A stretch of 63,768 nucleotides of DNA, filler included, from Perkinsus chesapeaki ATCC PRA-425 (lineage: Eukaryota > Protista > Perkinsozoa), in assembly GCA_013115145.1 (NCBI GenBank). It is 10 parts of 10 records of this genome, joined end to end, with 100 filler letters (N's around TTAATTAATTAA, not from the genome) between each part and the next. Parts side by side here need not be neighbours in the genome. Positions count along the whole stretch, not along the records: positions 2,921 to 22,252 come from JAAPAO010000641.1; positions 22,353 to 40,117 come from JAAPAO010000679.1; 8 more parts are not named here. One strand, given 5' to 3'. The position numbers and the translations under genes are program-made. This document shows, piece by piece, positions 2,921-34,662 of this stretch. Position 1 is the first letter of the stretch, and each line of letters opens with the position of its first letter. Below the pieces are notes generated by a model. It saw nothing but the letters and a program-made list of their open reading frames with translations. It had not been told where the DNA came from and did no database searches.

Positions 2921-3249
2921 AGCCTAGGTCTAAATCTAAGGCTAAAGCTAAACGTTCTGCGTCTTCGGTTGAACGCGCTTCCGATGTTTCTCCGTTTGAT
3001 CACAGGATTGATCCTCGTCTCGCTCCGTCTACAGCTGACGACATCTTTGTCCCCGTTCACAATCACGACCCTATACTACCCTCACAGCGCAACCACTATC
3101 TCGCTCGCCCAGTGCATTATATATTTCGGCGTTTTTGATACGTGGGTTCGAATCCTAGGGAAGACATCGAAGTGTTACTTGGATATCAATCACCATAGGT
3201 TCAATGAGAAATAACAATTAGTTTCAAGATTGCTTTCTGAGCTCACAAA

Positions 3250-4625
3250 ATGCACAAGTCGTTCGATAAGCGAAGGTCACCGCTTCCGCCTACGACAGTC
3301 TTCTCCGCGCCGAGCAAAGAGAGAATCAAAACCATCCGTTTGAGCATTATCAGAAGTCTGTAAGAAAGCTAAGAGTTGCTTCAGAAGAGTTCGACAAATC
3401 GTAGCCGTCAGGTTCCGATATCACCCTCGCGTCAAATGTAGCTGGAAGGGACGATTTAGAGAATGCGTAAACTTGTGTGGCGATGTGAATGGAAGATTGG
3501 ACGTGTATGGATGGGCGAACCTATTGAGGGAAAGATTGAGGATTTACGCAGATGAAATGACCAATGAGGAAGTATGTTGAACTGTTAATCAAACAATACT
3601 TGGTTCGATCCGCGGTTATACCTTCGTGCGTCAGATTGAACACATATTTTACATAATCGACGAGAAAAAGAAAGAAGGGAAAATAAATGAAACTGAGATT
3701 ATAGATTTCCTTCAATACGAAGAGGCTCCTTATGTGGGAGAAGGGGAAGATATCGACAACCATAAACAACACTTACGGTGATAACATTATCCGAAGACCG
3801 ATGAAATCTTTGGGTTGAGAGGCTGAAAGATGCTCTGTAAACCGTTTCGGATATTTCATACCACATCTTCGTTCGAATCAAAGGAGCTCTCTCGAGACTT
3901 AACAAAATCTGCCATACACAGCTCACTTTGTTTTCCCATAGACTGATTCTGGTAAATGAAAGCTCACTAATGCTGCTTAAGCGTTGGTTTTTTGGTCTAT
4001 ACGAGGCTTCGGTTAAGATCTGTAAATGCAAGCTGCGCAATGACATGTATTTCGCCATCCAAGTCACTTTCCTGTCCACCTCCTCAGAATGTCTACCCCG
4101 CCCCCGCCGACAATCAATAGGGAACTGTTCCTCTCACAATCTCGCCATTTCAGAACCCTTCGGATTAAAAGGAACTTCCAGTTGGCCTGTCGAAGTCTCG
4201 GAGTCGGCCAGGAGTTCGTCAAGAAGGCGTTTTATGCCTACGACAAGGACGGTTCTGGTAATGTCTGACGTTGTCGTAAAATTAATTGTAGTTCTGTTCT
4301 CAGGCAACTTGTCGTTTTCGGAGTTCCGAACTGGTCTTCGATTTGACCTAAAGATAAGCCGCTGGGAAATGAAGGAGGCGGACATTGTGTATATGTTTAA
4401 AGTGGGTTGAAAACGTGAGGTGGATTTAGTTCGGGGATGTCGCTGCTTCAGATTTTGGATCGAGATCGTTCTGGGAATGTGGACGTGGAAGAGCTTGTTT
4501 CGTTCCTTAGTGAAGGCATGAAAAAGGGGGAGCAGAAAATGGGTGTTTCCGAGTCTATGCGAGACCTCTCTTTATTATGGCATGTAGGAGGATATGCTGA
4601 CCTGTTTTGCATCTTGCAGGGGTGA
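3250..4625 (+). CDS. Multi-exon EF-hand calcium-binding protein
   Basis: Splicing GTAATG..CAG after 4257 gives AFYAYDKDGSGNLSFSEFRTGL. The next exon gives ILDRDRSGNVDVEELVSFL. Both are canonical 12-residue EF loops. Upstream exons and ends are approximate. Confidence 0.7.
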
Positions 4626-4712
4626 AGCTAGGATACTTCGTGCCTATCTCAGGCAGTAGAATCTGGGGCAAGAACCGTCCCAAGGTCGATTCGGCATGAA
4701 ACACCATTAACC

Positions 4713-6558
4713 ATGTCCTCTACCCCTAAAGGCGTTCCATCCGCCGCGGAGCTTCTCGCCCGAAAACGTCGGTGCCTCTCCCGCAGCTTCTCATGGACGT
4801 CTTTATCAGTAGGAACACTTAAACACTATTCCACACCAGTTCGATTCCTGGATGGGGCATCTTGTCGTGTGTGGGGAAGAATGAACACCAGTAAACCATC
4901 GATGATGAAAGAAATGTGGGGGTGGAATTCTGTATTCCCAGAAGCTCCATGGTTTGGCGATTCTATGGCTCCCAGCGCTTTGCTAATGGTGGTCTTGTCC
5001 TAGTCTGATGGCAACTGTGTTTAATGTGTTAGGGAAGCGATGGACGATGGAAACAGTTTGGGAATACTTGTGGAGGAGGATGGGCCAAACATTTCAGCAT
5101 GAACAACAAACGACTTTGGTCTTGATTCACGTTGACATTGTCGTCGTATTTGCGTTATCGCCCCCCTCTTCGATCAGCCTTTACTATTTATCTCATGCCA
5201 TTTCCAATAAAGAACGTTCACAAACGGGGTTCGCCTTCGAGGGCGCAATGTGTCCCTTTGTTTGCCATCGTACCATTTCTGCAATCATCAGAAGCAACTG
5301 CCCTCTATATAGCGTTCGGCGAACCGCTGGACTCGATGCCTCTGATACATCTGGTGGATCTTAGAGGGCTCACCGGGCCGCCGACATGGAGCGAGTTGCA
5401 GCTCCTTCAGACGTTGGCAATTGGCGAGGATCAGCTCGTTCATTTCAACTACTTCACTTTGCCGAATCTGAGGTCAATTACGATCTTTCCGACCCTCGTG
5501 AACTGTCCTGGGCTCGACCTCTGCCCTCTGATCAGTCGCTTCCTCACCCCTAGGTTGCAGACTCTCAGCCTTAAAGGCTTCTACTGTGACACATTGATAG
5601 GCGCCATAGAGAGTGTGGAGGAATGGCCGCCGCAAGTTGACAAGCTGATTCTCTCGCATGATGGCACTTCTTGCCAAGGATCCTCCTGGAACCTTTGGGG
5701 GGTGATCTCATTCGCCTTCCCCGGGCTCAGGAAGATAAGCGCTGTTCCATCGGGGACATGGAGACGTGTTAATACCGATTGCCAATTGTTAATGACGAAA
5801 AGACAGATTGAGTTTATGCCTAGAATTTCTGAAGTCGAAGTTAAAGGTGACAGATGCTTACTCCATCATCACTTCATCATTCATCAGGTCCACCACCGGC
5901 TTTTACAATCGATAACTCAACTCTTCAATATCGTCTGACTAGTCTTAGCATTACCGATTGCCCTATATCGCCCACCCTCATCAACAGCCTTTGGGAGGCA
6001 GCCAGCTTTCCCTATCTTCGGAGGTCAGATAAGTGAATCGATTTCCTTTATTAATGTCTTTTAGACTTTCCCTTCTGGGACCGACGTACGGCACTGTGGG
6101 CTCTGCTTTGGCATTGAAAATAACGCAGAGAGGATTCTTGCCTGCTTTGGAGAATCTGTAAGGAATGTTGTTGGAATCCAGTAGCTATGTGGTCGATTGG
6201 TCAGATCCCTTCATTTGACCAAGTGGAAGGAACTGGAGGGTGCGCGGCGTCACTGTGGCGTCCATACCGACATCGGAATATCTTTCTTGAGAATTCTACT
6301 CAAATTATTTGAAGCAGGCCAGATACCTCCGCATCACAGGCTTCGCGTAGAATTTCGTGGCGCGTGAGATTTGCATCATCCTCTTTACAGGTTGTCGTTA
6401 CCACTGCGGTGAAGTGTCCCACCGACGGCGCTGCCCTCCTCCACGAGCGACTCGGGAATGGCATCCTGCCGAAATTGAGAGTTTTAAAAATAAAGTCAGA
6501 AGATGGCCGTTATCGGATATTCGATAATACCAGCCAGAGCAGCAACGCTGTCTTGTAA
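4713..6558 (+). CDS. F-box-like/leucine-rich-repeat protein, multi-exon
   Basis: LRR-like units (LPNLRSITI, TPRLQTLSL, FPGLRKIS, FPYLRR, LPKLRVLKI). Removing a 31-nt intron near 4810 gives LPQLLMDVFIIRFLD, which resembles an F-box start. Start codon unresolved. Confidence 0.5.
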
Positions 6559-6718: not shown

Positions 6719-7897
6719 ATGGGCGTGAGTTCGACCCCCAGTAAGGACATTTTCATGACCTTCCTCGCGCACCCCTCAGGAACGGGCTTCAGTGTAGATG
6801 CCACTTTTCAAAACCTCTTCCCAACAGTCGGTGGTATTAGCAGTATTCATTTTAAACCATCTCACGAGATCACTTTCTATAGTGATGATGAGAAGCCTAA
6901 TACATGTTACTACACTGGTGTAATAGATAGAGAAGGTAAGGTTGAAGTGATATTGGTGGATCCATATGAAATGGAAGATAATCGTTGTAAAGAACTCACC
7001 GCCTCATACGGAGATAACTTCCTTAATAATGGAGTTACTCTCGATATGAAATCTATGGATGCTATGATACTCGGTAAAAATGGCAAAACAGATATTTACA
7101 CCATCACGGAGGGGCGGTCGGATGAAGGCTATTGTATGGGACCTGATAACAGTGGTAGATTGGACTGTACTTTCAAAAGGGTTGAAGGACCGGCAAATGA
7201 AGTATCCTTCCATCTTAACGGTAAAGTCGATATATTCAATGATCGCCAAGAGCGTGTTCGATGCGATTACATCGTTAAAGACAAGACTGATGTTAAGCTG
7301 ACCTGTCCTGAGCCGACGAAAGGAATGCGCTGCCTGGTCGAGTCTTTAACGGAAAATGTGGAATTAAGAAGGAAAGTTGGATCTTTGGAGCTCACAGCTG
7401 AGGTAAGTAATGAACTTTGCTGGACAGCAGACACACACGTCTACAAGCAAGTTGAATGGGAGAAAGCATTCTTTGATTTCAATCTCGAGAGGGTCCGAGA
7501 TGGCCTTACACTGGATGCAACTTTCTCCGCCGATGACAGTAGTCAAACAATTGCTACAGTGGCAATGAAGGACAACGGCGACATCGAATTTGCTGGGGGC
7601 AAAAAGAAGTGCAAATGTAAGTACAGAGCAAACTTCAACAGTGAAAGAGGCAACATTGATATCGAACTATTGAAGGCAAACAGCAAAGATTGTCAGTCTC
7701 TACTGGATGGCTCCAACAAATCGAAGGGGAGAGGCGGTTTCCTCCGCAGTACCTTGAGGCGGAGTAAGAAAAGTGAATATCACCCACGCATTGTGATCGT
7801 TAATAAAGCCATGAGAAGAATGGAGCTTCACATGGATAATGGCTTAACCGAAAGTCTTAGTTCAGTGAATGGGAGTAAAGCTTATATTAAAGACTAG
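6719..7897 (+). CDS. Lineage-specific beta-rich protein, paralog A (probably secreted)
   Basis: Intronless 392-aa ORF with clear paralogs at 10876-11762 and 11763-13043. A hydrophobic leader (MIIYLIIVLK, ATG 6688) lies one base out of frame. Confidence 0.75.
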   Translation: MGVSSTPSKDIFMTFLAHPSGTGFSVDATFQNLFPTVGGISSIHFKPSHEITFYSDDEKPNTCYYTGVIDREGKVEVILVDPYEMEDNRCKELTASYGDNFLNNGVTLDMKSMDAMILGKNGKTDIYTITEGRSDEGYCMGPDNSGRLDCTFKRVEGPANEVSFHLNGKVDIFNDRQERVRCDYIVKDKTDVKLTCPEPTKGMRCLVESLTENVELRRKVGSLELTAEVSNELCWTADTHVYKQVEWEKAFFDFNLERVRDGLTLDATFSADDSSQTIATVAMKDNGDIEFAGGKKKCKCKYRANFNSERGNIDIELLKANSKDCQSLLDGSNKSKGRGGFLRSTLRRSKKSEYHPRIVIVNKAMRRMELHMDNGLTESLSSVNGSKAYIKD

Positions 7898-13536: not shown

Positions 13537-16193
13537 TCAAAGCTCATCATCCCGAGTCCCTTCTTGTACAACTGTAGCATCACCAGTGATGAGCACGCAA
13601 GCTCCCTGAGATTGATGATGGTGATGATGATCGTCAAGACTTGCTGTTGTTGACAAGATACAGAAGCAGCACTGGTTTACCTCCTTGCCATCTCCTACAG
13701 AATTCATCATAAATCCGCATATCTTGGCAGCAGCTTTGTCGGCTACTTCAACGTCTTTGAAGGATAATCTGAAAGCAACAGGAATGCAACTGACCGGCGG
13801 CGTGAAGTAAAAACATGCTAAAGTTTTTTCTACTAGCTTTCGCTAAATGGCACTTTCATAGAAGCGCTGAAAAGTACGTAATTGTGATGATGATCATGAC
13901 AATATAATATCATCACGACGCTGGCTCAAGAATACATACCGCGACGACTACAATAGGACTTTTATGAGGTTAGAAGAGACGGGCTAACCTGAGTTGTGGG
14001 ATATCCTTCTCTTTAATCTCTCGCGTGTCGATCAAGCCTGATGAAGCTGATTCTGCTGGACATTCCAATCGACTTCTCACTTAATTTCTTTCCATCATTA
14101 TCGCACCACCACAAGGAGTATCCATTCGCCTCATCCCTCCTCTCCTCCTCCCTATCAGCCCTATCAATCGCGATAACCCCGGTGAACCGTCGAGTATTCT
14201 CTTCAAGGCCCCCCTTGATGATTGATATCCCTCGCGGTAGCCCAGAGGGACGGGATCGGTCGTGAATCGGCCATATTGCGCAGGCGGTGGTCAACTCCCC
14301 TTTAGATGGATGCTCACCTAAAGCCGCAGCAGAAGGATGATGATGATGATGAGGAGGAGGAGGAGACCGTCAGCATCTCCAATAAGATAACGTATTTCTG
14401 CATCAATCGATCTCACACTTTGTATAGCACTATTAATTCATTCTCCTTCGCCCAATCATCTGCCGATCAGAAAGGTCAGAAAACGGCGTAGAAATGTCGG
14501 CGGTGAGGATCGAACCCACGTTCCCACTCACCGTCGTCCTGATCATGCATGCTAAATGCTAGGATGCTTTCTGCACCCTTTTTTATAGCCATCGATTTGC
14601 CAAGGTCATACTGTGCCCCTATCGGCCCTTTTGCTCGGGCACGGCCGATTCTGCTGCTGTCGGGCAGGGCCTCGCAACTGGTGGAACTTCTCCCCCAATA
14701 AAGAGTGTAAAAATCCACAGACGGCTGGGAATCTGCCGAGTGTGCCGGGAGGATCTTCATAACACCGCCAAGCTCATCGACTTCAGGCGAAGTATCCTCT
14801 AGCTCGAGACCCTAAGATACAAAATAGGTCAAGTTGAACGCAACTAGCTTTAATGACCTGTGGCGGGTATCCAGGAACAGCCCAATCTTCGATGGACACC
14901 GTGGCAAAGTGTACATTATCAGACTCGCCAAAAGCGTCATTGGCCGGGACGGCGGTGATCTTGCTGGCTTCCTCGGGAATTCTGATTCCTTCAGGGAGAG
15001 TCTCTAACAGTCTCGTGGCTCGCATTTTAGGATTCGGAATTTTAAATATCGGATGCTGGCTTAGTTTGGTGTTATTTTTATCCAAAAAGTAAACGGCGAA
15101 AAACTCGGCATCACCAAATACTGCGGTGGAGTTTACCTGAGTGTGGTGGTATCTTAGGTTGACACGTGGAAGATACGCGGAAGGTTAGATAGATACCTCA
15201 ATGGTCCCACTTATAAATCCCTTTCTCGGGTCAACATCTGTGAAGTTAATCTGCGAGACTTCTTCTTGTGGCTTGCCGTGACATCTTCCATCAGGTCCAG
15301 TAAAAAGCTTCCCTAAATCCCTTTGCCAGGATTCGAACCCACGACCTTCTGCTTACCAGAACAATCGTCTGCGCAACTGTCCACACATTTGTCATCTCCA
15401 ACGCAATACGCCTTCTTTTGTAGGCGACAAGTGACTAGACTGTAATGTGGTGTTGGTAGGCCAGCCAAACTCTCCTCATGTAGCTCAGCAAAGTCCATCC
15501 AATAATGCATATTAGTAACCTTCCGGTCCTTCGAGACCAGCAGACGGGGCCATTTACCTGACAAAAGAAGAAGAAGACGATGAGAAGACGGCCGTTCGAA
15601 CGGCGGATGAGCACTTCGCCTGTTGGCTTTCACGAGAGTTGCGGAAAGTTTTCCAACTGAAGCCATCGCCCAGCGGCTGGCAGAAGGGTCGACGTTGTCA
15701 AAAAAACTCAGATGAAGGGTGTACTTGTGTTTTTTACCTGATAATCTTGAGGTTGAGCATGCATGATACAATATAGCTCACCTGAATGTTCTCCAACCGC
15801 CGTAACATGTATGTCATTTTCCGTTATATTAACCTCCGGATTTCGAATGTCGAGTGCTCCAGGTGCATTCCATCGACGTGTGAATTTAACATTTATAAAA
15901 ATAGCAGTATCGTTTTGCGCCCACTGGAATGCCGGCGCCACTTTCTGTGGTTTGAAGTAGTTTTGGTCGAGACTCCGGACTAGCTCGTCTGCTTTAGCTT
16001 TGATTTCTCTGGTCGCCTTTCGGACCGACGGCCCGTAAAAATCGACTCGTCCTTGTTGTGATTGTTGCTCGTGATCCAGTTTAATTGCAGCTAAAGCCGC
16101 TGACCACCTGAAAGGATTTTGGCGGGAAAGTCGGTATGAGAATATTGTTAGCAATATAGTAAAGCATATTATTATTCCCAATAATATATCCAA
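13537..16193 (-). CDS. Membrane-anchored CS (p23/HSP20-like) domain protein with Cys-rich linker and repeated beta-sandwich-like domains
   Basis: N-terminal hydrophobic helix. CS-domain motifs PAFQWAQND, YTLHLSFFDNVDP, WPRLL and NMHYWMD. Introns 15313-15356 and 14460-14531 keep the frame. Repeated motifs FTDVDPRKGFISG..YTLYWG and FTGVIAI..YSLWW. Confidence 0.65.
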
Positions 16194-16271
16194 CCGCGAG
16201 ACGGCGAACTATTCATCTTAATCAAAAAATGCATCCGAATAGCACATGTGTCCTGGGGCACCCTGTCAGCA

Positions 16272-17742
16272 TTACCATTGTTTTTTAATCAACTCCTCCA
16301 TCTGATCACCATTGATCACATCCCGTATCGATCGACCAGTCTTCCCCGCTTCCTCTATCTCACCAAGCATTGCTGCCTCATCCGTCAAAGCTGCTGCTGC
16401 TGCTGCCAGCAGTGGGCAGAGCAAAAGCACGAGTTGCCCAATCGGTGGCATAAAACAGGAAAACTCGCCATTGGCTCCATTAAGACTGCTAATAACGCAA
16501 CAATCGGGGAAGTCGTGAAACGGCGACAGTGGAAGTATACAATAGTTAATCTGCGGGGTGGGGGACGCTCACCGATGATGCGTCCACTTCGATGATGCCT
16601 TCTGAGACGCAAACACGCTTGCCCATGACCCCTTCGCGGAGGTAGGGCTGGGAGACCGCCTACTCTCGCGAGCATCAGGAGGCTCTGCCATGCAGAGACC
16701 TGAACGAGAAATACCTTAGGTCGAAGCATGCAAGATTCAAAACAGGCCTTACTCCTCTGGATTTGAGGATCAATTCTACCATACGATAATCCTGGCCAAT
16801 CACCCTCCCCAAGAGCTTTCCATTCCCTCTCCGTCGGTCGCCGAATAACAACATCATCGTCCTGCTTCGCTCCGCTGAGTTTTTCCGCATTTCTAGCATC
16901 AGTAAACTCGACTGCAGCTGCTCCCCCAAATTCTCCTGTATCAAAGTCGCCCACAATCATCCTTATACTCCTCGTTGGCCCTGCCATCGCATGTAAACGT
17001 GAACGCAGGGAGCCTTCGGTCGTCGAGGCAGGCAGGTTAGTTATCACTCTCACTCTGGTGATGTTATGATCATGGAGATCTCCAAGGGCAGTCGGGACAC
17101 CAACGAAGATTGGTCGATCTGGCGGTGGCAAACAGGAAGCTATCAACTGCTATGCAAGTATCCACAGAAGCAGAATCAATAAGCGCGTCAAGGGGTAAAT
17201 GGGGGAAGATTGCCCCTTTTTTACAAGAACAGGAAGGACTAATGCACGTGGTGAAGGAGCGTAGGGAGCCTTACTGAGGAGGAGGCTACGCCCACTTCTT
17301 CATCCTCATCACCATGATCCGTCGCTCCGTATGGCAAATCGGCAACAGGAAAACCGCGAAGCTCCATCTTGACCAACTTACTAATGATGATCTCCTCCTC
17401 AGCTTCTCCCGATTCTGTAATAAAATCATCCCTTCTTTTTCGACGGCCAGATTGCGGAGTTGACGCTATAACACTGGGAGTGACAATTTTGCTAAGTACA
17501 AAGACCTCGTGGAAGAGAGGATCGAAAACAGACAATAATGGCTTCTCCGGCATTCCCTGAATAAGTCGATTAAAAGCCCCCCCCGCCTGGTGACGGCAAG
17601 ACAGTACCTCCTTCAACCCTGAGCTCTCATCAGTATTATTACTGTCATCATCGGCAGCAGCAGCAGCATCTGGGGTGAGATCCGCATAAAGATCATCCAT
17701 ATATCCATCAAAGCTACATCCCATATATGAATTTAATAACAC
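16272..17742 (-). CDS. RRM-domain RNA-binding protein, multi-exon
   Basis: ITNLPASTTEGSL (RNP2-like) and GEFGGAAAVEF (RNP1-like). The last exon reads open to TAA at 16272. The 5' boundary is uncertain. Confidence 0.65.
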
Positions 17743-18013: not shown

Positions 18014-19024
18014 TTAGTCTGATAATGAACGAACAAGCTTTGGTCTCCGTGCCCACATATGAAGGACACTTGAAGCTTGACACTGTTCGACCATTCGCAT
18101 TGCATCCATTCTAACATCATTAACTCGCACTATAATATCGCCTTTCTGTAGCTTTTGGCCTGGAGGAGCCTTCCTATTCCAGAGATCTACCGAACCTTCG
18201 GGAGTAACTCTGTCAACTACTAACCAACGAGGATCGCTGTGATCAACATCAATGCCCAAACGGACGCCAGGGATCCTCTGAAAAAGTACATCTCATTACA
18301 TTAACCTATTGTGTATCTTGTAAGGTTGAAGCTAAGATATTACCTGAATATCTATCTTGAAGCAATTAGATTCTATATCTTCATCCGATACCCCAACCCT
18401 CTCATCAGCAACATCATCAGCGCTATCATCTTCGAAGCTGCTGTTTTCATCTTCGCTTGTCTGAGATATTAACTCTTTATTGACAAGATCATTACCAACG
18501 AGAATCGCGGCATGATAAACTCTAAAGGCCATATTAAATACAACAGTGACAATATGGAATAGCCTAGCGACCAGTGAAGGGGAGGACGACTGCACATTAA
18601 CGAACCCCTCCAAGATAATATATCCCTCCCATTTTACTACATTAACAACTGCCTTGGCTGCTACTACTGACGGTGATGATGTCTCTTCGAAGTGACCTAG
18701 AAAATATCTTTCGAAACGGAAGATATTTCATAGGTTACCTTGGTGACCTTCTTCCTCTTCCTTGGGATGATCTATTGGTGATGCTGTTGTCGGAGTTGTG
18801 GTGATTGGCTGTTGTTGTTGGGTTAACTTGGGTGTAGCTTCTTGCGTATCATCGACCTTATCAACGGTAACCTCATTTAACCAGTCAGCTGAGTCTGGTC
18901 GCCGACAACATTGATCGAACATGTTGGTGCTGAAGGTCTCTATCCTTGAGACTGCTGAGCTCGACTCTATTGAAGCGAGCGTATTTCCCATTAAAAGAAG
19001 ATAAGTAGAATATGCGCTGATCAC
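18014..19024 (-). CDS. PDZ-domain protein, multi-exon
   Basis: GIDVDHSDPRWLVVDRVTPEGSVDLWN..LQKGDIIVRVND is a PDZ pattern. Acidic and Q/T-rich upstream exons. May continue below 18014. Confidence 0.65.
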
Positions 19025-20340: not shown

Positions 20341-22049
20341 GTGCCCGATGAAGTGCTGGAGTCGTGGGGCGTGCCATTGAAGCTGATAAGAGCTATACGA
20401 GATCAAATACATGACATTGAAGTACACACAGTATTCAAATACTTAAAGGCGAAACCAAGAGTGACAGGTTACGGCGATTCGATCCGATTTCGTGGCGCGA
20501 TTGAGAATCCTCGGGGACGGTAGAAGTAAGAGGAGAATTGCGATGGAGAAGTTGAAAAAGCGACATAAGGAGAAGTGGGAAAAATTGGGACTCGCCGGGA
20601 TGGGAACATATGTTAGGTGGGCGGCTGTTACCATTGCGGAGGCCTACAAGAGGTATCTTATGTCGAAGCGCGGACATTTGCCGGCAGTCTATAGAGCTGA
20701 TGATGACGTGGGTGAATTTTGCGACCCTCCAGATTGTTATGATGATGACTCGGTTTTCTCATGGAGTATGATTAAAGGCCCGAAGCCACTACCAAGTGAG
20801 TTGATGACGCTCCCGGGGATTGAACTCGGGTGTCTGGATGTTGAAAGAGTCTTCTATAGCCAGCTCTGGAAGATATCTGTATCGAGTATATCTCCTTTCG
20901 TGATAGGTCATGGGTTGTATGGCTCAGCGCTTGCAAAATCCAACTGTTATTAAAATTTTTCGTTGGGAAATTCTGCAGAAAAAACATGTTCACATAGATG
21001 GTGTTGATCAAGACCAATAATCGTACTGGTTTTGTGATGATAGAGTATAGAGTCCTTGTTAAGATTGAGTGGGAAGTGAACTCACAGTGCACTGCAACAA
21101 TTTAACCGTAAAATCAATGAAAATGCAGTAATAAGAAATCGAAGGTAAATTTCCTTAGGTAATTCGCCTAGTGGTTGAGACCACTTGAAGTATCTTTGAA
21201 CTATATCGCAGCTGCCTTTAGCGAGCTTATTTCGTTGGCAACTCATCAAGATTCCTATATGTCTTGTCTTTAGCGCATCGGAGTAACGTTTCATCATCGG
21301 GGTCGTCATCAGCTGTAGCTCCCTACAGAGCAGCGAGGAGAACTATAACGATTGCAATCGGTCGATGGATCATAAGGTCAGTCATACATCGATAGAATTG
21401 ACGGATGAACTTTTAGGATGCTCAAACGCCGACGCAGGGCTGCTAACAACACTTCCCAGCTAGGGAAAGCTATCCAGAAGGTGAGATGCCGGTGCTGGGG
21501 TTCGAACCGGAGACCTCTAGATACTTGTGGAGAAGGATATGAAGGCCGAGCTCGGCGACCCTATTCGGGAATGGCTGATTGGTAAACAATGGCTTTCTAC
21601 TATTGAAGATCTGGGATTTGTTGAGGAGCGACATTGGCGTCAATGGAATGCTGAGCACAAGGTATCTTACTGCGCACGCGTGCAGTGCGACCTCGAGCAG
21701 ATACCATGGGGAATGGTACTGGCCTTAAAGGAGCTTTATTCAGCGAAATTGACAGAGAGAATGCTCAACAAACTCCCTGATGGTAATACTAATTTTCAAA
21801 CTACTTACATTTCATAGCTGCGCTGTAGGCTTGAAAGAGCGAGTCCTATCCAGCACTGCGTGGTTGAAGTTGATGCCGCCTCGCGGTAGTCTGGTGAGTT
21901 CTCGATATCAACTCAGACAACCCAAGACTCTTCAGGTATCATCCTGGCTTCGTGGGGTGGTACGATGGATGAACCCTGAGTCCTGGGCTGCCGTTGTGAT
22001 ACAGCGAGCAGTTCGTCCATGGCTGATGGCAAAGCGCATCTATATGTGA
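20341..22049 (+). CDS. Multi-exon hypothetical protein with SAM-like helical segments
   Basis: VPDEVLESWGVPLKLIRAIR and WLSTIEDL..IPWGMVLALKE resemble SAM helices 4-5. Intron 21481-21520 joins two open frames. Gene number and boundaries uncertain. Confidence 0.35.
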
Positions 22050-22910: not shown

Positions 22911-24216
22911 TTGGTTAGTATTTCTCTTTACATTTTTCATCCTATCATCGAGGCACTTGTAAATAATGGTGATGCTTCTATCAAAGGTGGTGTTGGCGAT
23001 GATAATGCTGAGTGTACTGGGTTATGCTGCAGTAGGCGATTTGGTACGGTTATGGTAGCCTCAGGCTTCTTTCAGGAAGAATCCTCGGTCGCAGCGAAGC
23101 CTGTTAATGACAAGTCTGGTGAATTAGATGGGGGTATATTAGTATATAATGACCTTGCTCATAGGGATGTATTATGCCGATATATACAGAGTAATATTTG
23201 GGATATTGTATAGCAAAATAGTAAAGTGCATTTCGCGTCAAATTGGAATTATGTTTGTCATCAGCGTTTCGTTTATGCACTGGGACTCCACACCCATTGG
23301 AAGGCCTTGCTGCGAGGTTTTCGTAGGGTGCATTATTTCACAGGTTTAGTTTATTGTATAGCGGTGTTTTTGTTTCCCTCAGTCCCAGCCGATGCTCATC
23401 GTATTCGTGCCACTGCATCGGTGATCGGTCTTACTGGTAATCCCAATCTATTTGCTGGATTTGATGAGCAGAAATTACGTGATAAAATATACAAGGAAGC
23501 AGCCCCGACAAATCAAGGAGGATACCATATGATACACGAGACGTAATAATAGAATAGAGAAGAGACAGACTTTGGGATACTTTGTAAAGTTATTGATGCC
23601 ACTAGTATTCGGTATGGGTCCGGGTGGGGGGAGGGGGTTTCGTGAGAAATTATCAACTAACTGCTCATTAATAATGATAATTACAAATTTATGGAACTCG
23701 TTCGTCTTGAGAATGAGATCGTTCATATATAGGGTCGGTAGTGGTTTATATTTATATGTGATGTTATAATGGAATGTACAAGCGAGAAATATATCAAAAT
23801 GGATGTGTGTAATAGGATAGATTAGATCATGTTTGATGAAGTATAATGCCATACGAGGTGGCCATTTTATCCTTTTTCATCGTAATATGTGATCGTATTC
23901 GACAGTCATTTGAAGACGTGTCGGTTTTCATGTGCCTTTACACAATAGGCAATTTCATTTTCGGTATAGTGGGAAATTCTTCATGTGCATTACAAGAATT
24001 CGAGTTCTCATTTGTGTCAGGTATTTCGTTCCCAAGTCTTCCGATGGTCGCTTCTATCTCTGTGTAACGACCTTCGCCACACAAGGCACGGATTTCGTAA
24101 TAATTACCGGTGGGTGGGAATCGAACCTGCGCCCTATTGGTCTTGAGTTTAGGTTCTTACCGGAGTGGTCTCTAATGCCGCTGAATTTGGCGTGGAGCCA
24201 GTTATGCCGTTATTGA
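22911..24216 (+). CDS. Multi-exon hypothetical protein
   Basis: A series of open plus-strand segments separated by GT-AG stretches. No recognisable domain. Confidence 0.3.
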
Positions 24217-24519
24217 TGGAGTATCCGACAGTGCAAAGTGTTGAAGCTTTTGGGAGGCATCGGGAATATAGGGTACTAGGCTATGGTCTGGGGCGCGATG
24301 TGATGTAACAAGAGAAATACTGTGTAGTGCAGTAATTGGATTAGTTGACCGGATAGATGAGCACATTAGTATTAATAGTTTGGTATAAATTAGTTGGCGC
24401 TAGTGGCGTGTTTTAATTATGTTAAAAAGCATCTCTTTCCCGAACTCAACGTGATGGAGAATATTTGGTGTTCGGTTTGCTAACCCTGTGTAATGTATGG
24501 ATCCCTCGTGTCACTACAG

Positions 24520-27500
24520 GTTACACTTCCCGCATCTCCACCGACCTCTAGTGATGGTTCGGTACCACCTATAACGATAACAGTGGCACAGATAGTAGGA
24601 GAGACAGATCTTATGGTAATATTGATAGACTTGCACTCATGTTGACTATTGCTGATTGATGATATTATGTCTTTAATACTTTCTCAAAAGCTTTCCTGCG
24701 GTGTGTGATGGAAATTGAGGGCGAATTGGCTATCGTGAATTATGCATTCTCGATAGCCAAGTGTGAGTATGTTGGAAGCTATATACAAACTGGTCAAAAA
24801 ATATACAAAATTTTTGACCAGTCTGGACGTATACGGCAACACTGCCCAGACTAGGTAGCCTCTCGTTGAGGAATGCTCAGGTCCATGCATGTGGCACTGA
24901 ACAGTCATTGGCAGTCTCTGCTGTGGATGGTCCAGACACAGTAACGATTACAAATGAGCAGTTAACGGGTGCTGGATTGGGGCCAGGATCGGAGCTATGT
25001 GTGGTGGTTAAGACTAATAAGCTATTCGCCAGTGCATCTACGTAATGGGGAGGGGGTCCGGTGATGTGGTTTAGGGTTACAATGGGGAGGGGGTCCGGTG
25101 ATGGGGTTTAGGGTTACAATTCTTGTTCTGGTTGATTTATTTGTCTGGTTAAGTTCAACGTCCTTTATTGTGCATATGTCTCATATTTATTAGTATCTTA
25201 TATCTGGATGGCCAGCCGTTCTAAAATTAGCATTTCTCGAGCCGGGTCGAGCTGTGTATGCTACCGAATATCGCTTGTATGGTACTAGGGATTCTTCTGA
25301 TTCTAACAAGTGTCATATATTAACACATCATAATAAGATCAAGTGATACATAACTCTCATTAATGTTAGCTTTAAATTCTCCTGTTCTAGCGTGTACTAG
25401 TAACTGTTATTTATATGACATGTAGCTATTACATGTTCCCTATTCCCTACTGATTATAACTATTATTGCTATTTTGCCAGCATCTTCACCGCCTGGTCAT
25501 GGTGACGTTTACGGTAGGTTCTGGTTGGTTGTATCCCAGAGCCCCCAAGGTCCGTTTGTGATGCAGAGTCTGCCTATGTATGCTGTTATACCGGGGAAGG
25601 GGCCACAGAGGGTTAGGAGGTTCAGGACTTATTTTAATAAGGGTAGTAAACCGAGGGGAGGAGAGAAAATGTGGATAGTGTAGACGATTGTGGTGTGGCA
25701 TATGAGGAGATAGTTGCTATGAATTGCTTGAATAATTAATTGATATTCAATATCCTTAACTGATGTATTCATCCCATATTGCCGAATATGCAATAGTAGA
25801 CTTTTCAGGAATGTGGTCGGAGCGTTGGGAATTTGTGGCGGTGTAAGGTATGCAATCTATTATCTTATTGATATATAGTTATCGATGAAATGCCTTATAG
25901 TAATCCCTATACTCACAGTGTTATGTGGTTTAAGCCTTTGTGCACTGTTCAAGCCGAATGATGTTTGCTTATAAGGTACGGATCTCACCATCACTGCTAA
26001 TCCTGTGACGGCCAGTGCGGTTAAAGAGGCATCTAGTAGACCTGGGGAAGTGCAGGTGGGATTGGGATGTACGCTCGAACATGAAAAGTACACTTTGGAG
26101 CTGCTTGTTGGTGCATTTGGAGCATATTGTCCATTGAACTTTTTCCTCTATCCCTGCAGTAGCAGTATATTTTCGGGTAGAATTTGAGATGAATTATATC
26201 CGGATAATTACTTAATCCTTCTTATATATCCGGATAATTACTTAATCATTCTTATATTTCCGGATGATTACTTAATCCTTCTTATATTTCCGGATGATTA
26301 CTTAATCCTTCTTATATTTTCGGATCATTTATATCTCTGCTGTAGGGGTGCTATCTGACGCTTGAGGAGCGGAACAATGAATCATTTGGAGGGGAGAAAC
26401 AACACATTCGTTTTTTGGCGAATGCCTAATTTCTAGGCTCTACGTGCCTTCTCGCTTGTTGCGATTCCAAAATTTCATGGTAATAAATTGACTTGTTTAA
26501 GATGTCGCATGTTGAAGCTGTTATATTTCGACTCGAGAACTTATTCATTTTGTTTTATTGATTAGCATCAAGTTTGTCTTTAGTCTGGCTCCCTGCCACG
26601 TATAGTAGCTGATACTACTCCGAATGGGCAGACGTGGAAGGATCATGGTGATGGTCATATCGCCATAGACAAGTCTAGTTTGGATGGTCATGCTGGTCAA
26701 GGAGAAGTTGTATATGTATCTGTATCACCACCTAATGATTGGCATGAAAATTCGGAGATGCCATTCGAGCTGACTATCACTACCAGTAATAGGGTCGGCG
26801 GTTGGTGTCTTGGGGTTGAAACTCGGGGCGAATGGTTTAATATTTACATTGTCATTTCGAGTGTTTATGAGGTCCCCAGTTTTAAGCTTGTAATCTCACT
26901 GAGGCCTGTGAATGCTTGAGGGTATGAGTGGTGCTGAATGTGGTAGTCATATATCATTAGCCCAAATTCGAGGGCTGTTATTTAGAATGTCAAGCTTATT
27001 CGTATTGAGCCTATCACACAAGGGTATGTGTTGTACGTGTTTCATTAGTACTATCAACATTTAGTAACTCACCAGTTTCATACTCTTCATCATATGCGGA
27101 CAGTTAAGATAATGCTTGTTATTAGCGCAAGAGCATGGACGATCTCGAGACCGCTGGAAATCTCGTGTTTGCGGATGGGGCGCGCATATTTGCCACGTTG
27201 CAGAATTTCGACGGAAGCCTTGTGAATAAATTGACTCATAAAGCTGTTCGATATGTCAGGTAGTACAGTACGAGATCTCCAAGATGGCAAACCTGTTACT
27301 GTTACCATTAGTGATTCAAGGAAGTTCAGGGATTTCCGGTACTAATAGGGGGCGGAGCGGGGGAAGGGGGGTGTATGAGAGCCTTGGCCAGCAAACCCTA
27401 ACTGTGGCAGTGTTGTTTCAGTTGTTGTTGTTGTTGTTGTTGTTGTGAATGTGAATGTGCATGTGAATGTGCATGTGCATGTGCATGTGAATGTGAATGT

Positions 27501-30500
27501 GAATGTGCATGTGAATGTGAATGTGCGAGTCGAAAATACAGCAGAGTCATATTGAACTAAAGCAGACTGCCTTAAGCAGTCGACTAGAGTGTGCCTAGAT
27601 ACTCATTCGGATATTGTCTGCATGCCTTTCACACGCATGTCCAACGTTGCGTACACCTCACCAGAATCACCATACTGTATCCTGTTATATTGGCATGTTG
27701 GAGTGGGCGTATGTGCTCATGCGTTTTCCGGGGGCCTTCTGCTGTTTCCAACAAGAAGCCGTGTGCCTTTCACGGCGAGTATCTATGAGAGCGCGCTTAC
27801 TTCTTTCCGGGCCTGTAGAGATCAACGGCCTTCTGAACAAGGGCAATCTCTTGCACCTATTTGAGGAAGGATGGCTCATCTTTCTTGTTCGGGTTGGATA
27901 TGGCACCGTTGTGATCTCATTTGTATTTAGTTATTGGGTACCAAAGCATGCTAGAATAGTCCTGTCCATAGTGGGGGACTCCTCGAAGGATGGCAGCGGT
28001 CTGGCTATATTTGCTGATACTACCAGATACAGTCACGATCCACGAGGGTAATGGTAAAGGGGGGAGGGCGGTAAAGTTGTGTGGGGAAGGCGCATGATTC
28101 GCATGGTTTTGGCAAGAATCTGGCTAATGCTCATGCCGCTTCTTTTCTAGAGTTCCGTCGAAGCATGATGTTTAAACTTTATGCCGAAGTACGTTATCAG
28201 GTATACGTTTAATACCATGGAGGGATCTAATGAGATATTCTTGACGAACATGAAGTACTATGCGCAGTCGCATCCAGGAAAGGTGATGGGCATGGGTGGG
28301 GGTGGGTTATGGGCCGGTAGTAGGATTGACGGAAAACTGGTGTGGATATGAAGCTGTATTGCTCTTTATGAGGTGTGTGGATGGGGGTTACGTGCAACGA
28401 GATTGAGATGTACAGGGACTTTGCGTCGGGCGATTTGAGGGAAATGTGGTATGAATACCGAGTATCTCTGTATGTTATTACCGTGAGATGCTGCAGCGTG
28501 ATTTAAGGGAAATGTGNNNNNNNNNNNNNNNNNNNNNNNNNNNNNNNNNNNNNNNNNNNNNNNNNNNNNNNNNNNNNNNNNNNNNNNNNNNNNNNNNNNN
28601 NNNNNNNNNNNNNGTGGTATGAATACCTAGTATCTCTGTATGTTATTACCGTGAGATGTTGTAGCGTGATTTAAGGGAAATGTGGTATGAATACCTAGTA
28701 TCTCTGTATGTTATTACCGTGAGATGTTGTAGCGTGATTTAAGGGAAATGTGGTATTAACGTTATTATTGAATGTCAGGTTCAATATATCAATTGCGATA
28801 TGGGATATATTTACCTAACTGTCAAGAGCTGTGCTGTGAGTAATGGTAAATGTGTAGAGGATGCATCAGTAGCATCTACCTTTACATTAACAGTAGCCAG
28901 TGATGCAGGTAGTAGGGATGGGGAATGGACTTATGGAGGCTGTAGGATATCGCTGGGGATTCCAATCTACAAAATTTAGAAATATTCGGGTTGGTTTGTG
29001 TATCAATATTTAACAGATATCTCAGTGAACCACTCGCGTGAGAGTAGGCAATTGTTTGATATCACAAATGATTTTGAGGCGGAGGGAAATGAGAGTCGGC
29101 GATTTGCATAACAGTTTCGAGCGCACTAGAGATAGCGGTATTCTGGTAGAGATTAGCGTATCTTAAGTTGATTCACGGTTTATGGCGGCTGGAGATGGAT
29201 TTTACCACTACTGGCAATGGTATAATACGTTTCGTGTGCTACTTTTGGTGATTTTGAATGGAGTATTAGACTCGAATGGATAAGGGTGAAATTACTCATA
29301 CTAATAATTAAAAAAAGTTACCTTTGTTGTGGATGTCAGGATCAACCCATGTCCAAGATGGTGTGCCTATCCATCAGAAGGTTCATATGGCTAAGAAGTT
29401 TGTATACACGAATCCGATGGTAGATAAGGGAGAGGGTAATAAAAAGGATAATAATGAATCCGAGGTAGTGTGGCGGCAGGGGGCGGACGGCAATATGGGA
29501 ATATCCTCGTGTGGTTCCTATGGCGATAGCAGGAAGAGCTAGCAGTAGTGAACTGCTTGGCCGGCGGGCTAGCCCAGCGCTGGTACTAGTCGATCGACTA
29601 ATACTCTGGCCGAAAAATGGCCATGGGAGGATAACCATAGGCTTTCGCACTTCGTGCGTAATTTCTAGAGCGAATTGGTGTGGGATTCGGGGCGCGTGAC
29701 TGGGGAAGGGGTACTCAATTGTCGATGGCTGTTGATGTGTATATCTTTTGACTTCAGGGGAGCAGTGAGGTTGATTCGGCTTCGGCGTCGGCGGCTATCA
29801 ACTTCAACGATTTGCTTGTTAAAGCGGCGGTTAATGGGGGAAGAGGGTCTCTTATGTTAAGCAATGATGAGAATTTCGCGACAAGTAGGATGCGGGGATC
29901 GAACCGGGGTTGGCAGGTGTTTAAAATTAGGCACACAGGCTGTATTTTGCGGCTATGACGATGCTGGTGATACGAAGGCAGATGGAGGCAACGTCTGCAC
30001 TTTTGTTATTAAGAAGGATGATCCGATACGGAAAAGCAAATATATTTATGCTAAAATGGTAATAGGGAATACATCGCTCCGTCGGGTGGGAAGGACTTGC
30101 GGCGGTGATATGAAAATGAAACAGTTCGTTTCGAGCATTTGGTTTCGAGGACACACTTCTTCAGCCGAGGAGTACGGTGGTCGCGAATCTTGCGTTTTTC
30201 ATTGATCAACAAATTGATGAATTGAGCTCACGGGTGTGAAAAGTGGGTGTGGGTGACGGTGGTCGGCGTTTATTGAGAGGCGATGGAGCAGCGTGGTTGA
30301 TGGAATATTTCAGATACCTGATTTGACGGACTCGACGGGAACTGCTCTCCTGGATTTTGACTTCCTCATGGCCGATGTTGGTGGTGAAATTGTTATGAAG
30401 AATCATCAGCCGGTGAATGATGCTATGTTGAGTGGTGGTAGTAGAAAGTATAAGATATTCATACCGGCATCAACGTCAAGGTGGGTATCTTAGGTTGGAG

Positions 30501-33388
30501 CGTGTAAGATACGCAGGTGTGGTATTTTTCAGCTCTTCGGGTACGCCGTCTCCTGTGTCTGCGATGTTCGATGTTTCGAAGACTAGTGGACCGGTGGAAA
30601 TTGAAATATGCGATGCTGGACTGTAATAACCTTTCTGGGAATTGAACCCGGGTCTTTGGCATAGAAGGCTGAAGGCTTATCGTAATGCGCTATTCAGGAA
30701 CTGCAAAACAGTGAAGGGAGATGGGTCCGTGCAGTTAGAGGAGGAAGCTAGCAAGGGGAATGTAGCTGGGAAATGGATGCATGTAACGTCAGCATTTGCT
30801 AAGTGTTATTAGATAGGAAGTGTAATCGATTTTAGGTTCGCGCCAAATGTGAAGGCAAGTGCTCCTATCGTCTCACTGGTGCGTTCTTCTTGAAGTCCAA
30901 CTCGCTAAGACTTAATTATCGCCCAATGACAGTCCCACTGGACGGTGGCAGTTTTAAAGACTGTAATCGCATGGGTTCGAACCCTGGTTAAGACGTTTTT
31001 GTAGGGATGGTCGGGTATAAGGACACTGACCATTGGCTGCTGCATACGGAGGTTAGAGGGCAGGAGGCGGATGCAGTTAAGACCTGCATCAAGGATCAAT
31101 GCTGTAATAGGGAGGCTATCGGGTTAATGTAGACTAGGAATCACGGTCACTCCACAGTCACCTACTATTCACTAAAAACTCTTGAACGTGAATTGGATTT
31201 TAGTGGGCTGATGAGCTTTAGTGAATTTTTGAAGCCATATCCAGGCGACTAGGTTGTGATCTGGCGAAGAGGCCGTATGATGGGGGAAAATGCAAGTTTG
31301 GTCCAATTTCAGTTAATAATTATTTATAGTTCTTGTTGTGTAATAGGCTGGCATGGCAGGGTTGACTTTCAGGCACGGCAGGATCATGTACGCTGTATGG
31401 GTTCGGAAAGGAAATAGCGAAACTGGAGAATCTTAAAAGCGACACGATAACCTACGTCCAGTTGTAAGTGTCACATGCATGCTTTAAGCTTGGATATGTT
31501 ATTACCGTGTAGATGGGCTACGAAGTTGAGCTTCCCAGCGATGGACGAGTGGTTGGATGTGACCAAACGAGGGAGTAACATCTATAGGCTTAATACCAAC
31601 TCGTTGGTGTCGTTCGATGCGGAGAAGTCGAGCACGGTAGTATTTGGGACGGCTGCTGCTGCTGGAGAGTGCGTCCAGTGCGATATGTTTACTATAGCTG
31701 CATTGAGATAGCTCATCCAATCGTTATTCTCAAAGGCATTGTGTGGTAACGTAGTTTTCTTGGGATAATATTGCCTATTTTATCATAATAATCTCGTGCT
31801 TCTTTGTGAACCACTGTCGTTGTTTCTCAGTTCAGCACTGGTGCTAAGGTGTCAGTCTCGGACTCCCTGTTTGGCGAGTATAAACCCTTGAGTGGCGAGA
31901 ATGTTATGGATTGTACGGGTAACAGGATTAAGTTTGTGAAGGTAAGGTCGCGTCTTTTTAGCCTAGTGGTTAGCGTGTCTGTAGGTCGATGGAGCGTCCC
32001 GGGTTCGAATCCATGCGCCGTTGAATCTCCAAGTTGGCGAGTGGGCTTACAATCCTCATTGGGTTATGTGGGGCGGCAGTTCTATTAAACAGAATGTACA
32101 CGTGGAAAGCTGCAACTTGGAACCAGCCGACGTGCTCGTGAACGGTGAGGTTGGGTGACGGAGCAATTATTACCATTATTACAACTGCTCGACACGGCAC
32201 CAATTCAGTGGTTTGTTAATTTATATTATCATCGGATAAATGACTCTGCCGTTGAAATTATTTAGAACAGAAGAACGTGATTGTTGTATCATGCATTGCT
32301 CGTTATTAAGGACCATTTCAAAAGCCGTTGAAATTGGATAGTGTGAATCTATGTCAGCAACATAAGCATTGCAATGTATGTGATGGACTGTTCTATCACT
32401 CTACAGATTACGCAACAGGGATCAATATAATTTTTAAAAGTATTTCAGAAAGATGTATGCTGCTGTTGATATAGTTATTGCGGCGATTCCAACATAAATT
32501 ATTTTCCCAGGTACCTCAGTTGATATGTCCTCGGCGCACAACTATGCCGCAAATGAAGCAAATTCGTTACTACTGACCGCCGGTGATGCCACAGTAGCGT
32601 ATCGTGTAGGCCTATTCAATCAAGTAAGCTATTAGTGGATTAATATTGTCTAGCCAACTTTCTAACATGACGTTCGTGCCCGCTTAGTCAGTTTATGGGC
32701 GGCTATTTGAATGCCGTAAAATGGTTAACCGTTATTGGTGGATTGTGGTAGTGTGTGCTGTAGTGAAAGCTGGTTGTAGAGTCTGAGCGTTTGTGGGGAA
32801 ACTGGTAGCAGGCCCGACTATGAACTGGTGACCAGGGTGATAGTTGGCTCCCCAAGAAAGTGTATCCAGAACTCAATTGCAGCTGAGCTTCCGGCGTGTT
32901 AAGCTGCAGCAGCTACCTAGGATAAATCGCCTGTTGATGGTTAGTGCAATTTTTCTCCTATGAGGCTACGAAAACGCTTACGTGTCTGAGTGTTTTCAAT
33001 GATAACTGTACTTTCGCTCGACCAATGTTGACATACTGGTTCATGTATATATGATGTCTAATGCTAGGTACCTATACCACTAGCAGTTCATTCTACTAGA
33101 CAGAGCTTGGATTTCATGGCCCCGTCTAATGCACAGAATAGTTTGTAAGCTGGCAGGGAGGAGCTCTGAGAGATTCTTCACGAGAAATTGGAAGATTTGA
33201 AAATTGGTTTCCAGAATATGCAACCGATTTCACTTTTATTGAACGGCCAAGTTAGACCTCCATTTTCCCCATTTTTTGCAATACTACAGTGTGAACCAAG
33301 ACTTGGACTATAATCCTGAGGGTGTCCGAGCAGCTCAGGAAGTGAGTGTAATTTGCCTTTCTGTTTCTAGATACCGAACGATATGTAG
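24520..33388 (+). CDS. Very long multi-exon membrane protein (Cys-containing extracellular part, TM segment(s) near C-terminus); may be more than one gene
   Basis: Many short open exons joined by 30-90 nt introns (e.g. 29885-29930, 30623-30664, 30963-31004, 31942-32033). The exon from 32034 encodes LTILIGLCGAAVLL. A terminal exon IPNDM-stop ends at 33388. Confidence 0.35.
25044..25120 (+). repeat. 37-bp tandem duplication, 2 copies
   Basis: aatggggagggggtccggtgatg(t/g)ggtttagggttac x2. Confidence 0.9.
26194..26328 (+). repeat. Intronic 30-bp minisatellite, about 4.5 copies
   Basis: tccggat(a/g)attacttaatc(c/a)ttcttatat(a/t) at 26199, 26229, 26259 and 26289, with a partial copy at 26319. Confidence 0.9.
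27421..27525 (+). repeat. Compound microsatellite (GTT)n + (GTGAAT/GTGCAT)n
   Basis: Direct inspection. Confidence 0.95.
28432..28756 (+). repeat. 68-bp minisatellite spanning an N gap
   Basis: Period 68 (28446/28514; 28614/28682/28750). Confidence 0.9.
31952..32023 (+). pseudogene. Degenerate tRNA-like relic inside a 92-nt intron
   Basis: A-box TAGCCTAGTGG (31959) and B-box GGTTCGAATCC (32002) at tRNA spacing. Acceptor and T stems do not pair. Confidence 0.55.
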
Positions 33389-34662
33389 CCCCAAATACTC
33401 TTCGGCCAGTTCATGTGCATTGGAGCTTTCTGAATCAACACTGCACTCGGCATGGTCGAGCTGCAAGGGCGATCGGCGGTGTACTCTTGCTGTTCCATCC
33501 GAATGTAAGAAAACGTTCATGCTCCGGATCGAACCCTCTTCCCATAAAAACTTTCGGCGAGGCCAGCTTATAACTTTTCATTCTCAGGTCTTGCCGAGGG
33601 GTCTCGCCTGAGTGTAGAGGCTCGTAAGGGTCCGATATACGGCTTGTTCCATCCAGCAACCATGACCAGCGCTGGAGTGGCTGACAGTGCAGCCGCTGCC
33701 GAGGGCAAGGACGGCTTGGGAGTAGTCGAGGATTTGCCCACTGGTAAGGGCGCTCGAAACGGTCGTGGGTTATTCTTAGTGCAGGAAAGCGGTGGACTTG
33801 GACGTCTGTGTTGCTCTTATCGTTTGTGGCTTATATGATAGTAAGGTGTATTTATAACATGCATGTGTATGGTGCATCTGGTACAGAGGCAATACCACAT
33901 ATGGATGTTATTAGACATGGAATACTTCATTTACAAAGACTTAGGTGAGTTGAAGCACGGTTGGTCGGTGTCACCTAAATCGCGTTGAGTAGTGCGAAAT
34001 TACGACCTTGGAATGAATGTGTAAAGTCCCTTCTAATGAAGCTTCGATGACCGAAATAGAGACAACCTCATTCTTGGGTCTCCGACATTTGAGTCGTTTA
34101 TTCTTGTTGTTTTAGGTGGTCCAAGAAGTATCCCTTCAGTCATTCCGATAGCAGTAACCATATGATGGAGATGGGTACAGAGATGGACTATCATGACATT
34201 GAGAGCAATGCTAACAACAATAGCAACAACAGTGGAGGTTATCGCCGACACGATGTCGGCCAGCAATTGACTAGTCGACCAAATTCGACCTACGCTCCGC
34301 TGCGTTATGAGGATAGTTTGTAGAAGAGTAGTTAACGACGACGACGACGTGAATGAGTTTCTTATTTGGCTTTGATGATGACTGAGTAGATAGTATCTTT
34401 GCTTCCTCAACGAAAATTACCTATTTTGTTCGAGGCCATTAATAGCAGTGTTAGAATGTGTCTACGTTGTCGTTGTAGATATAGTCGACGCCGGTAACGA
34501 ACGGAGCTCTCCGAAAACGCTGACCGTTGACGCTGGAGAGTGCGAAAAGCCTTCATAGCTTTTCGCACTCTCCATCTTGGGAGATGTTGACACTGCCAGA
34601 GCATCACGCCTCGTGCTTGCTACAGACTTGTATGGTGCGCTCGTTCCACAACGCCGCACCAC
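33335..34662 (-). CDS. Multi-exon hypothetical protein(s)
   Basis: Open minus-strand segments, one hydrophobic (ADIVSAITSTVVAIVVSIAL). Putative intron 33522-33574. The model is weak. Confidence 0.25.

Follow-up and report, generated by a model that had tools for sequence, protein, structure and literature searches.

The window analysed here, a stretch of 63,768 nt joined from ten parts of ten records of the Perkinsus chesapeaki ATCC PRA-425 genome (assembly GCA_013115145.1), carries 14 copies of a 27-base unit that spans tRNA positions 48–74 and is centred on the T-loop motif, i.e. the B box of RNA polymerase III (Pol III) promoters, most of the copies being located in very short introns of protein-coding genes. 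The feature is real and appears to be so far undescribed, and its best reading, for which the sequence evidence gives evenly balanced confidence, is an intron-borne, high-density variant of the extra TFIIIC (ETC) sites. The literature search recovered neither a description of such an intronic box nor a paper on TFIIIC in Perkinsus, most subscription papers and the Perkinsus genome papers being outside its coverage, and a motif look-up in the supplements of some papers gave no match.

The strict pattern GGTTCRANYCC was matched nine times at eight loci (30973 and 30974 mark a single palindromic locus), as compared to a mean of 0.44 in 100 dinucleotide shuffles, none of which reached nine. All nine matches were recovered exactly where a first-pass annotation of the window had listed them, as were its one-mismatch copies at 14506, 20816 and 33525, and its observation that copies run both sense and antisense to the host gene was confirmed. 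With a relaxed pattern, allowing A at the first position and any base at the last, 18 matches were found against 3.85 expected, which added the copies at 3602, 4838 and 6728 overlooked in that list. The working set of 14 loci was taken from the relaxed matches by excluding those at 21499 and 30974, which re-read palindromic sites in reverse, as well as the poor ones at 541 and 35437. With a profile built from the 14 sites, no extra site above background was detected in the window. Copies were also correctly reported as absent from the transposon-rich 40–62 kb region, since the last strict match ends at 32012 and the last profile match of over 10 bits at 33535. The site density is about one per 2.4 kb over the first 34 kb.

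Conservation extends well beyond the box (counts out of 14 sites): C48 in 12, G51 in 9, C63 in 8, G65 in 11, G70 in 9, C72 in 10, A73 in 9, T74 in 11 and T76 in 9, so that a conserved extension (G65, G70, C72, A73, T74) follows the box on its 3′ side. Leave-one-out scores of the flanks were above background (combined p 2e-16), sense and antisense copies alike. Upstream of position 48 the mean identity among sites drops to 27%, although the perfect variable-loop word AGGTC precedes the unit in two of the 14 (p about 0.001 given C48). CCA at positions 74–76 was present in none of the 14 sites, and junction duplications averaged 2.0 nt in box introns versus 2.5 nt in box-free introns. On these grounds the unit looks, at the DNA level, like the final third of a tRNA gene, and not like a retrocopy of a mature tRNA, a short interspersed nuclear element (SINE) or an introner. 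No tRNA was called by ARAGORN or Rfam in the whole window. Strict A boxes were not enriched (3 versus 5.7 expected), 13 of the 14 sites had no strict A-box match upstream, and D-loop or A-box fragments did not form an enriched companion class.

Host genes were modelled from homologous Perkinsus proteins, which are themselves gene predictions. Window exons were 98–100% identical to P. chesapeaki proteins and 77–91% to those of P. marinus and P. olseni. In total, 53 introns were modelled in a large 33-exon gene, a CS-domain protein gene and four neighbours. Since the proteins are predictions and the large gene may be a fusion, some of the long modelled introns may be spacers. In P. olseni relatives of the large gene the matches end at 30058; the part 30314–34320 was missing in all P. 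olseni relatives seen, one of which leads from 30058 directly into a peptidase S26 gene at 37480. No relatives of this gene were found among metagenome contigs.

Seven box-bearing introns are supported by contiguity of homologous proteins: four in three species, one in two species, and two in P. chesapeaki only. For the 44-nt intron at 15313–15356, removal was also seen in RNA, as exactly these 44 bases are missing from one contig (CT..AC ends on the plus strand, 62 letters on the short side) of a small run that is presumed to be RNA; for the other six the support is protein contiguity, coverage by the two small runs being limited to a minority of the box introns. Among the 11 GT..AG intervals originally proposed to enclose the copies, 15313–15356, 29885–29930, 30623–30664 and 30963–31004 agree to the base with the protein-supported introns. 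Three others had located the right intron with wrong limits or strand: 14460–14531 became 14318–14531 (214 nt), 24110–24152 became 24097–24152, and 33522–33574 on the minus strand became 33505–33587 on the plus strand. The intervals 20796–20847/9 and 21481–21520 do join open frames on removal and have no homologue; none was found for the exon following 21520. Of the remaining two, one was wrong and one unsupported. In 31942–32033 the true intron ends at 31984, which leaves the box at 32002 in the next exon, and removal of 3112–3158 gives three joined frames that all reach a stop within 21 codons. A profile search with the exon after 3634 returned one repeat protein only, not mapping back to the window.

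The original claim that every copy lies in an intron of 40–92 nt is therefore refuted by the exonic box and the 214-nt intron, but short introns are still enriched for the box. Among the introns modelled first it occurred in 7 of 46, as compared to 0.38 in within-intron shuffles, and once in 5949 exon bases. In the full set it was found in 6 of 24 introns shorter than 100 nt and in 1 of the 29 that exceed this length (Fisher p 0.038; per-base p 2e-5), and all seven boxes of modelled introns lie within the first 40 nt of the intron, in both orientations. One of the box-free short introns may in fact be long, because in both runs RNA contigs leave out 180 nt (18461–18640) at a place where a 51-nt intron (18590–18640) is expected from the annotated protein, reflecting either an alternative acceptor or an annotation error.

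Table. Features of the window (positions along the whole stretch; peptide counts are identities at the exon junction).
Feature	Span	Strand	Remarks
Large host gene model	22966..34323	+	33 exons; no assigned function; possibly an annotation artefact joining several genes
CS-domain protein host gene	13540..16403	-	conserved in three Perkinsus species
Extended B-box site	3141..3167	+	box 3145-3155; tRNA positions 48-74; proposed intron 3112-3158 unsupported
Relaxed B-box site	3598..3624	+	box 3602-3612; sense; predicted intron 3572-3634 (frame join only); poor flanks
Extended B-box site with A52	4834..4860	+	box 4838-4848; intron or exon
Extended B-box site with A52	6724..6750	+	box 6728-6738; tentative intron 6725-6779 (read by eye) or start of ORF 6716-7897
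214-nt intron, CS-domain gene	14318..14531	-	sense site 14494-14520, box 14506-14516; junction peptide 17, 12 and 12 of 17 in three species
44-nt intron	15313..15356	-	sense site 15317-15343, box 15329-15339; RNA contig; junction peptide 17, 15 and 13 of 17
Predicted 52- or 54-nt intron	20796..20849	+	antisense site 20804-20830, box 20816-20826; frame join only
Predicted 40-nt intron	21481..21520	+	antisense site 21486-21512, box 21498-21508; open frames joined by removal
56-nt intron	24097..24152	+	antisense site 24105-24131, box 24117-24127; 15/15 in three species
46-nt intron	29885..29930	+	antisense site 29883-29909, box 29895-29905; 15/15 in three species
42-nt intron	30623..30664	+	antisense site 30626-30652, box 30638-30648; 15/15, P. 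chesapeaki protein only
42-nt intron	30963..31004	+	palindromic box on both strands, 30973-30984; 15/15 in P. chesapeaki and P. marinus
43-nt intron without B box	31942..31984	+	A-box match 31959-31969 overlapping T5 run 31955-31959
Exonic B-box site	31998..32024	+	box 32002-32012; codes RVRIH, peptide also in P. marinus protein
83-nt intron	33505..33587	+	antisense relaxed site 33513-33539, box 33525-33535; poor flanks; 15/15, P. chesapeaki protein only
Second motif	4609..4636	-	
Second motif	15149..15176	+	in 60-nt intron 15137-15196
Second motif	16711..16738	+	unseeded copy, 27 bits; in 53-nt intron 16700-16752
Second motif	18313..18340	-	in 66-nt intron 18278-18343, joined in contigs of both runs
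Second motif	19035..19062	-	44-71 nt upstream of PDZ gene start
Second motif	30485..30512	+	in 52-nt intron 30481-30532
Second motif	31470..31497	-	in 49-nt intron 31464-31512

Whether the sites are maintained or merely decaying was judged from the T-stem and the box core, with 98 distinct tRNA gene ends as control, taken from 124 metagenome loci by a box-plus-T-run pattern and confirmed by ARAGORN. Only 18 of 42 possible Watson-Crick pairs were present in the T-stems of the sites, against 17.0 when 5′ and 3′ flanks were swapped between sites and 255 of 294 in the control genes. The stem was intact in a single site, 14494–14520, which begins 16 nt into its intron, as compared to 94 of 98 controls. 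The mismatch G49 with G65 occurred in four of the 14 sites and in none of the 98 controls, and A52 with C62 in three sites.

The core presents the opposite picture. Neutral decay to the observed stem level requires about 35% change per base, which predicts 3.6 copies with one core mismatch per intact copy, i.e. about 32 in the window. A detector trained on the control tRNA genes returned nine intact and two mismatched copies, of which one was the reverse read of a palindromic site and one was at the shuffle rate of 0.9, so that at most one core-mismatch copy exists. In short introns there were seven intact reads and three one-mismatch reads, all three of these being reverse reads of the same palindromic sites. 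At 15% change per base about 10 core-mismatch copies are expected (p about 1e-4); at 5%, as for very young copies, the test is not significant (p 0.09), and such copies should retain paired stems. Because core-mismatch copies are nearly absent though the stems are broken, the box core is most likely under selection and the RNA pairing is not, as far as these sequence comparisons go. The 41-nt intron 33744–33784 holds GGTCGTGGGTT, which equals the 5′ flank and box start of site 15339 and is followed by unrelated bases; this is a possible truncated or decayed box copy, outside the reach of the one-mismatch test.

On this basis we give an approximately even chance to the reading that the sites are ETC-like landing sites for the tauB part of TFIIIC, without transcription, mostly housed in minimal introns and kept by selection at the DNA level. 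The possibility of ETC-like intronic TFIIIC sites had been raised in the first-pass annotation, and it provides the best fit to the span inside the tauB footprint, the undecayed core and the lost RNA pairing. The 3′ ends of tRNA genes of several kinds would probably have supplied the first copies. TauB would then clamp the box, reading C48 upstream and bases at about 65–74 downstream. Without a usable A box TFIIIB and Pol III would not be loaded; this is suggested by the lack of A-box enrichment and by the T5 run that overlaps the only A box paired with a site. Once bound, TFIIIC could anchor nucleosome phasing, a barrier or looping within genes, a role borrowed from the ETC literature (PMC12409998), and an intron of 40–60 nt would be about the smallest space for a 27-nt site plus splice signals. 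In the structure of yeast TFIIIC the gene is covered by tauB from +37 to +76, the sole base contact of tau138 outside the box being the template-strand G47 (position 48 in standard numbering by our conversion); tau91 touches bases farther downstream, which ETC loci conserve (PMC11724288). For human TFIIIC, too, base contacts fall within this core (PMC11811891).

Several points weigh against this reading. All evidence comes from one window and 14 sites, four of which have leave-one-out flank scores at or below 0, and the control tRNA genes were non-Perkinsus and pattern-selected, with G52, G57, T60 and C62 forced. The site density extrapolates to thousands genome-wide, as compared to 8 ETC sites in budding yeast and more than 1800 in human (PMC12409998). 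The letters of the yeast extension are poorly matched, G68 being present in 2 and G71 in 4 of the 14 sites versus 8 of 8 each in yeast. In the single testable case, the box was absent at the corresponding offset of the orthologous intron in P. marinus-like DNA: an ORF (open reading frame) identical to the P. marinus protein reads into the intron at the position equivalent to 14531, and the 11 codons that it covers there are incompatible with a box on either strand. By this one case, an intron without the box is possible, and the box shows no conservation at that place, which speaks against a fixed ETC site. Finally, a DNA site alone leaves the avoidance of long introns and spacers unexplained. 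As the yeast extension is matched in part and binding is putative, the feature is not classed as an ETC member.

The main rival, which we regard as rather unlikely, takes the sites to be pieces from the 3′ ends of tRNA genes, of several isotypes and devoid of function, which DNA repair pasted into genes, thereby creating or refilling short introns. The span does stop just beyond the last base of a tRNA gene, in T-rich sequence, the words upstream are tRNA-typical, and a site may fill most of its intron (27 of 42 nt in 30623–30664) or even supply the donor, positions 49–54 of the site at 6724 being the GTGAGT of the tentative intron starting at 6725. P. marinus has more than 500 genes for five tRNAs (PMC3706591), which together with the two perfect AGGTC loops makes tRNA genes a likely source of the sites, and a tRNA-gene origin of the motif itself is plausible. 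Functionless fragments should, however, have left decayed cores along with the broken stems, and the reverse reads are the only mismatched copies in short introns. In addition, the combination of G49 with G65 is foreign to the control tRNAs, the 14531 intron is present without the box in P. marinus-like DNA, and one box is exonic. The same exonic box and the box-free P. marinus-like intron, together with the lack of a shared body, CCA or junction duplication, leave unsupported the earlier proposal that tRNA fragments or tRNA-SINEs gave rise to the introns. It is improbable that the copies are what is left of a single tRNA-derived SINE or introner-type mobile intron: although they are dispersed in both orientations at similar length, their consensus T-stem is pairable and Amoebophrya, a relative, has introners (PMC7789003), the sites have neither a body nor a tail in common (flanks 27–35% alike), terminal repeats are missing, junction duplications are no longer than in box-free introns, CCA is lacking throughout, and no copy lies near the transposons of the window.

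It is unlikely, to a slightly greater degree than simple relics, that the sites are selected in another role, i.e. as targets of some other or derived DNA-binding protein or in the splicing of minimal introns. The strong tie to short introns and to their first 40 nt is in line with such a role, as is the 3′ extension unlike that of yeast ETC, and a second unrelated motif with similar placement, never co-occurring with the box (see below), hints at a general role for intron-borne motifs. On the other side, the conserved positions coincide with known tauB contacts, and a role at the RNA level is disfavoured by the occurrence of both orientations and by folding no better than shuffles (z -0.4 to +0.8 in the six short box introns, with no hairpins found). 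It is highly improbable that the sites serve as promoters for small Pol III genes concealed within introns. The best candidate for this is the box at 32002, which starts 43 nt after the start of an A-box match, i.e. at tRNA spacing (chance about 0.02, estimated from the background rate); the general scarcity of A boxes upstream of the sites, the T5 run across this single one and the missing ARAGORN and Rfam calls all oppose promoters. A near-full tRNA at 31950–32024 was considered and rejected, as the box is exonic, the T5 run overlaps the A box and no model matched, including in a separate Rfam search of 31925–32050.

A second motif of 28 nt with partial dyad symmetry, RTATCTT..AAGATAY, was identified in seven strong copies in the window, six of them seeds with leave-one-out scores of 22–28 bits and one an unseeded copy of 27 bits, the shuffle maximum being 16.3. 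Several copies contain GCATGC. Five of the seven are in short introns, in both orientations, and none shares an intron with a B box. Weak copies at 15742 and 14567 (15–16 bits) were not counted as strong, as they remain below the shuffle maximum. Together, 11 of the 24 short introns (12 with a weak copy) versus 1 of the 29 long ones hold either the B box or the second motif. It may tentatively be proposed, though with clear doubt, that minimal introns are sockets for sites of DNA-binding proteins, the TFIIIC B box in about one quarter of them and the dyad motif in about one fifth, never both, forming thousands of intragenic chromatin-organising anchors that keep or create their introns. Two further short introns contain palindromic sequence: 15558–15614 has a 14-base palindrome around GTTCGAAC, and 18697–18738 a hairpin of 9 pairs (fold z -3.5) whose ends resemble those of the second motif.

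Elsewhere in the window, three related and apparently intronless ORFs without Pfam match (6716–7897, 10876–11790, 11931–13043) form tandem and inverted copies, and a B-box site is found at the start of the first. Long introns of the large gene contain tandem repeats at 28425–28752, 26195–26344 and 27420–27532; part of the 68-nt repeat is translated in the P. chesapeaki protein as annotated, and this repeat is skipped by an RNA contig and by two other species. Two intronless subtilase genes and one aspartyl protease gene (45213–46304, 48176–49273, 51442–52659) stand amid transposon remains, which include a MULE transposase, a PIF1 helicase and a gag-like ORF at 55614–62581.

Yeast has few ETC sites, and what they do there is still debated. 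Thousands of them in the 40–60 nt introns of a culturable protist would, if true, allow tests at scale and offer a DNA-level reason for the persistence of tiny introns. Perkinsus is a close relative of the dinoflagellates, with their highly unusual chromatin, and a lattice of TFIIIC within genes would be relevant to the beginnings of that change. Should the sites prove neutral, they still record tRNA genes as a source of intron sequence.

Among known systems, the Dada transposons of P. marinus link mobile DNA and tRNA genes in the same genus, but these span kilobases and use the A box of tRNA genes as their insertion site (PMC3706591), and nothing similar flanks the Perkinsus sites. Introners, including the introner elements of Amoebophrya, a related alveolate lineage, likewise recur as a sequence in many introns that belong to unrelated genes (PMC7789003). 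Unlike these, the Perkinsus sites have no terminal inverted or direct repeats and no whole-intron similarity, occur in either orientation and include one exonic copy. The anatomy of a SINE comprises a head with A and B boxes, a body and a tail. The sites resemble tRNA-derived SINEs and TFIIIC-bound Alu B boxes in being dispersed B boxes within Pol II genes, which in the Alu case can bind TFIIIC (PMC7014570), but are without A-box head, body, tail or target duplication. With the 3′ end of tRNA genes, a type 2 Pol III promoter, they share the profile of positions 48–74, i.e. C48, G51, C63, C72, A73 and the T trailer (PMC11724288), and differ from it in the missing A box (13 of 14), the absence of anticodon and D arm, the unpaired T-stem and the lack of ARAGORN or Rfam calls. 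The eight ETC sites of Saccharomyces cerevisiae are intergenic, conserved between species and of demonstrated binding, with G68, G71 and a loose G53 (PMC3395662). The Perkinsus sites, whose binding is putative, are located mostly in short introns of gene-rich DNA, with G53 fixed and G65, G70, A73 and T74 favoured. What they have in common with these, with the COC sites of Schizosaccharomyces pombe and with mammalian ETC is an isolated B box outside a tRNA gene with invariant T54–A58 (PMC3395662, PMC12409998). The yeast ETC sites in addition show T54–A58, G68, G71 and C72 in 8 of 8 (Table 1 of PMC3395662, aligned by eye with six reversed), and a conserved 3′ extension of about 10 nt together with C72, present in 10 of 14 sites here, is shared between yeast and Perkinsus.

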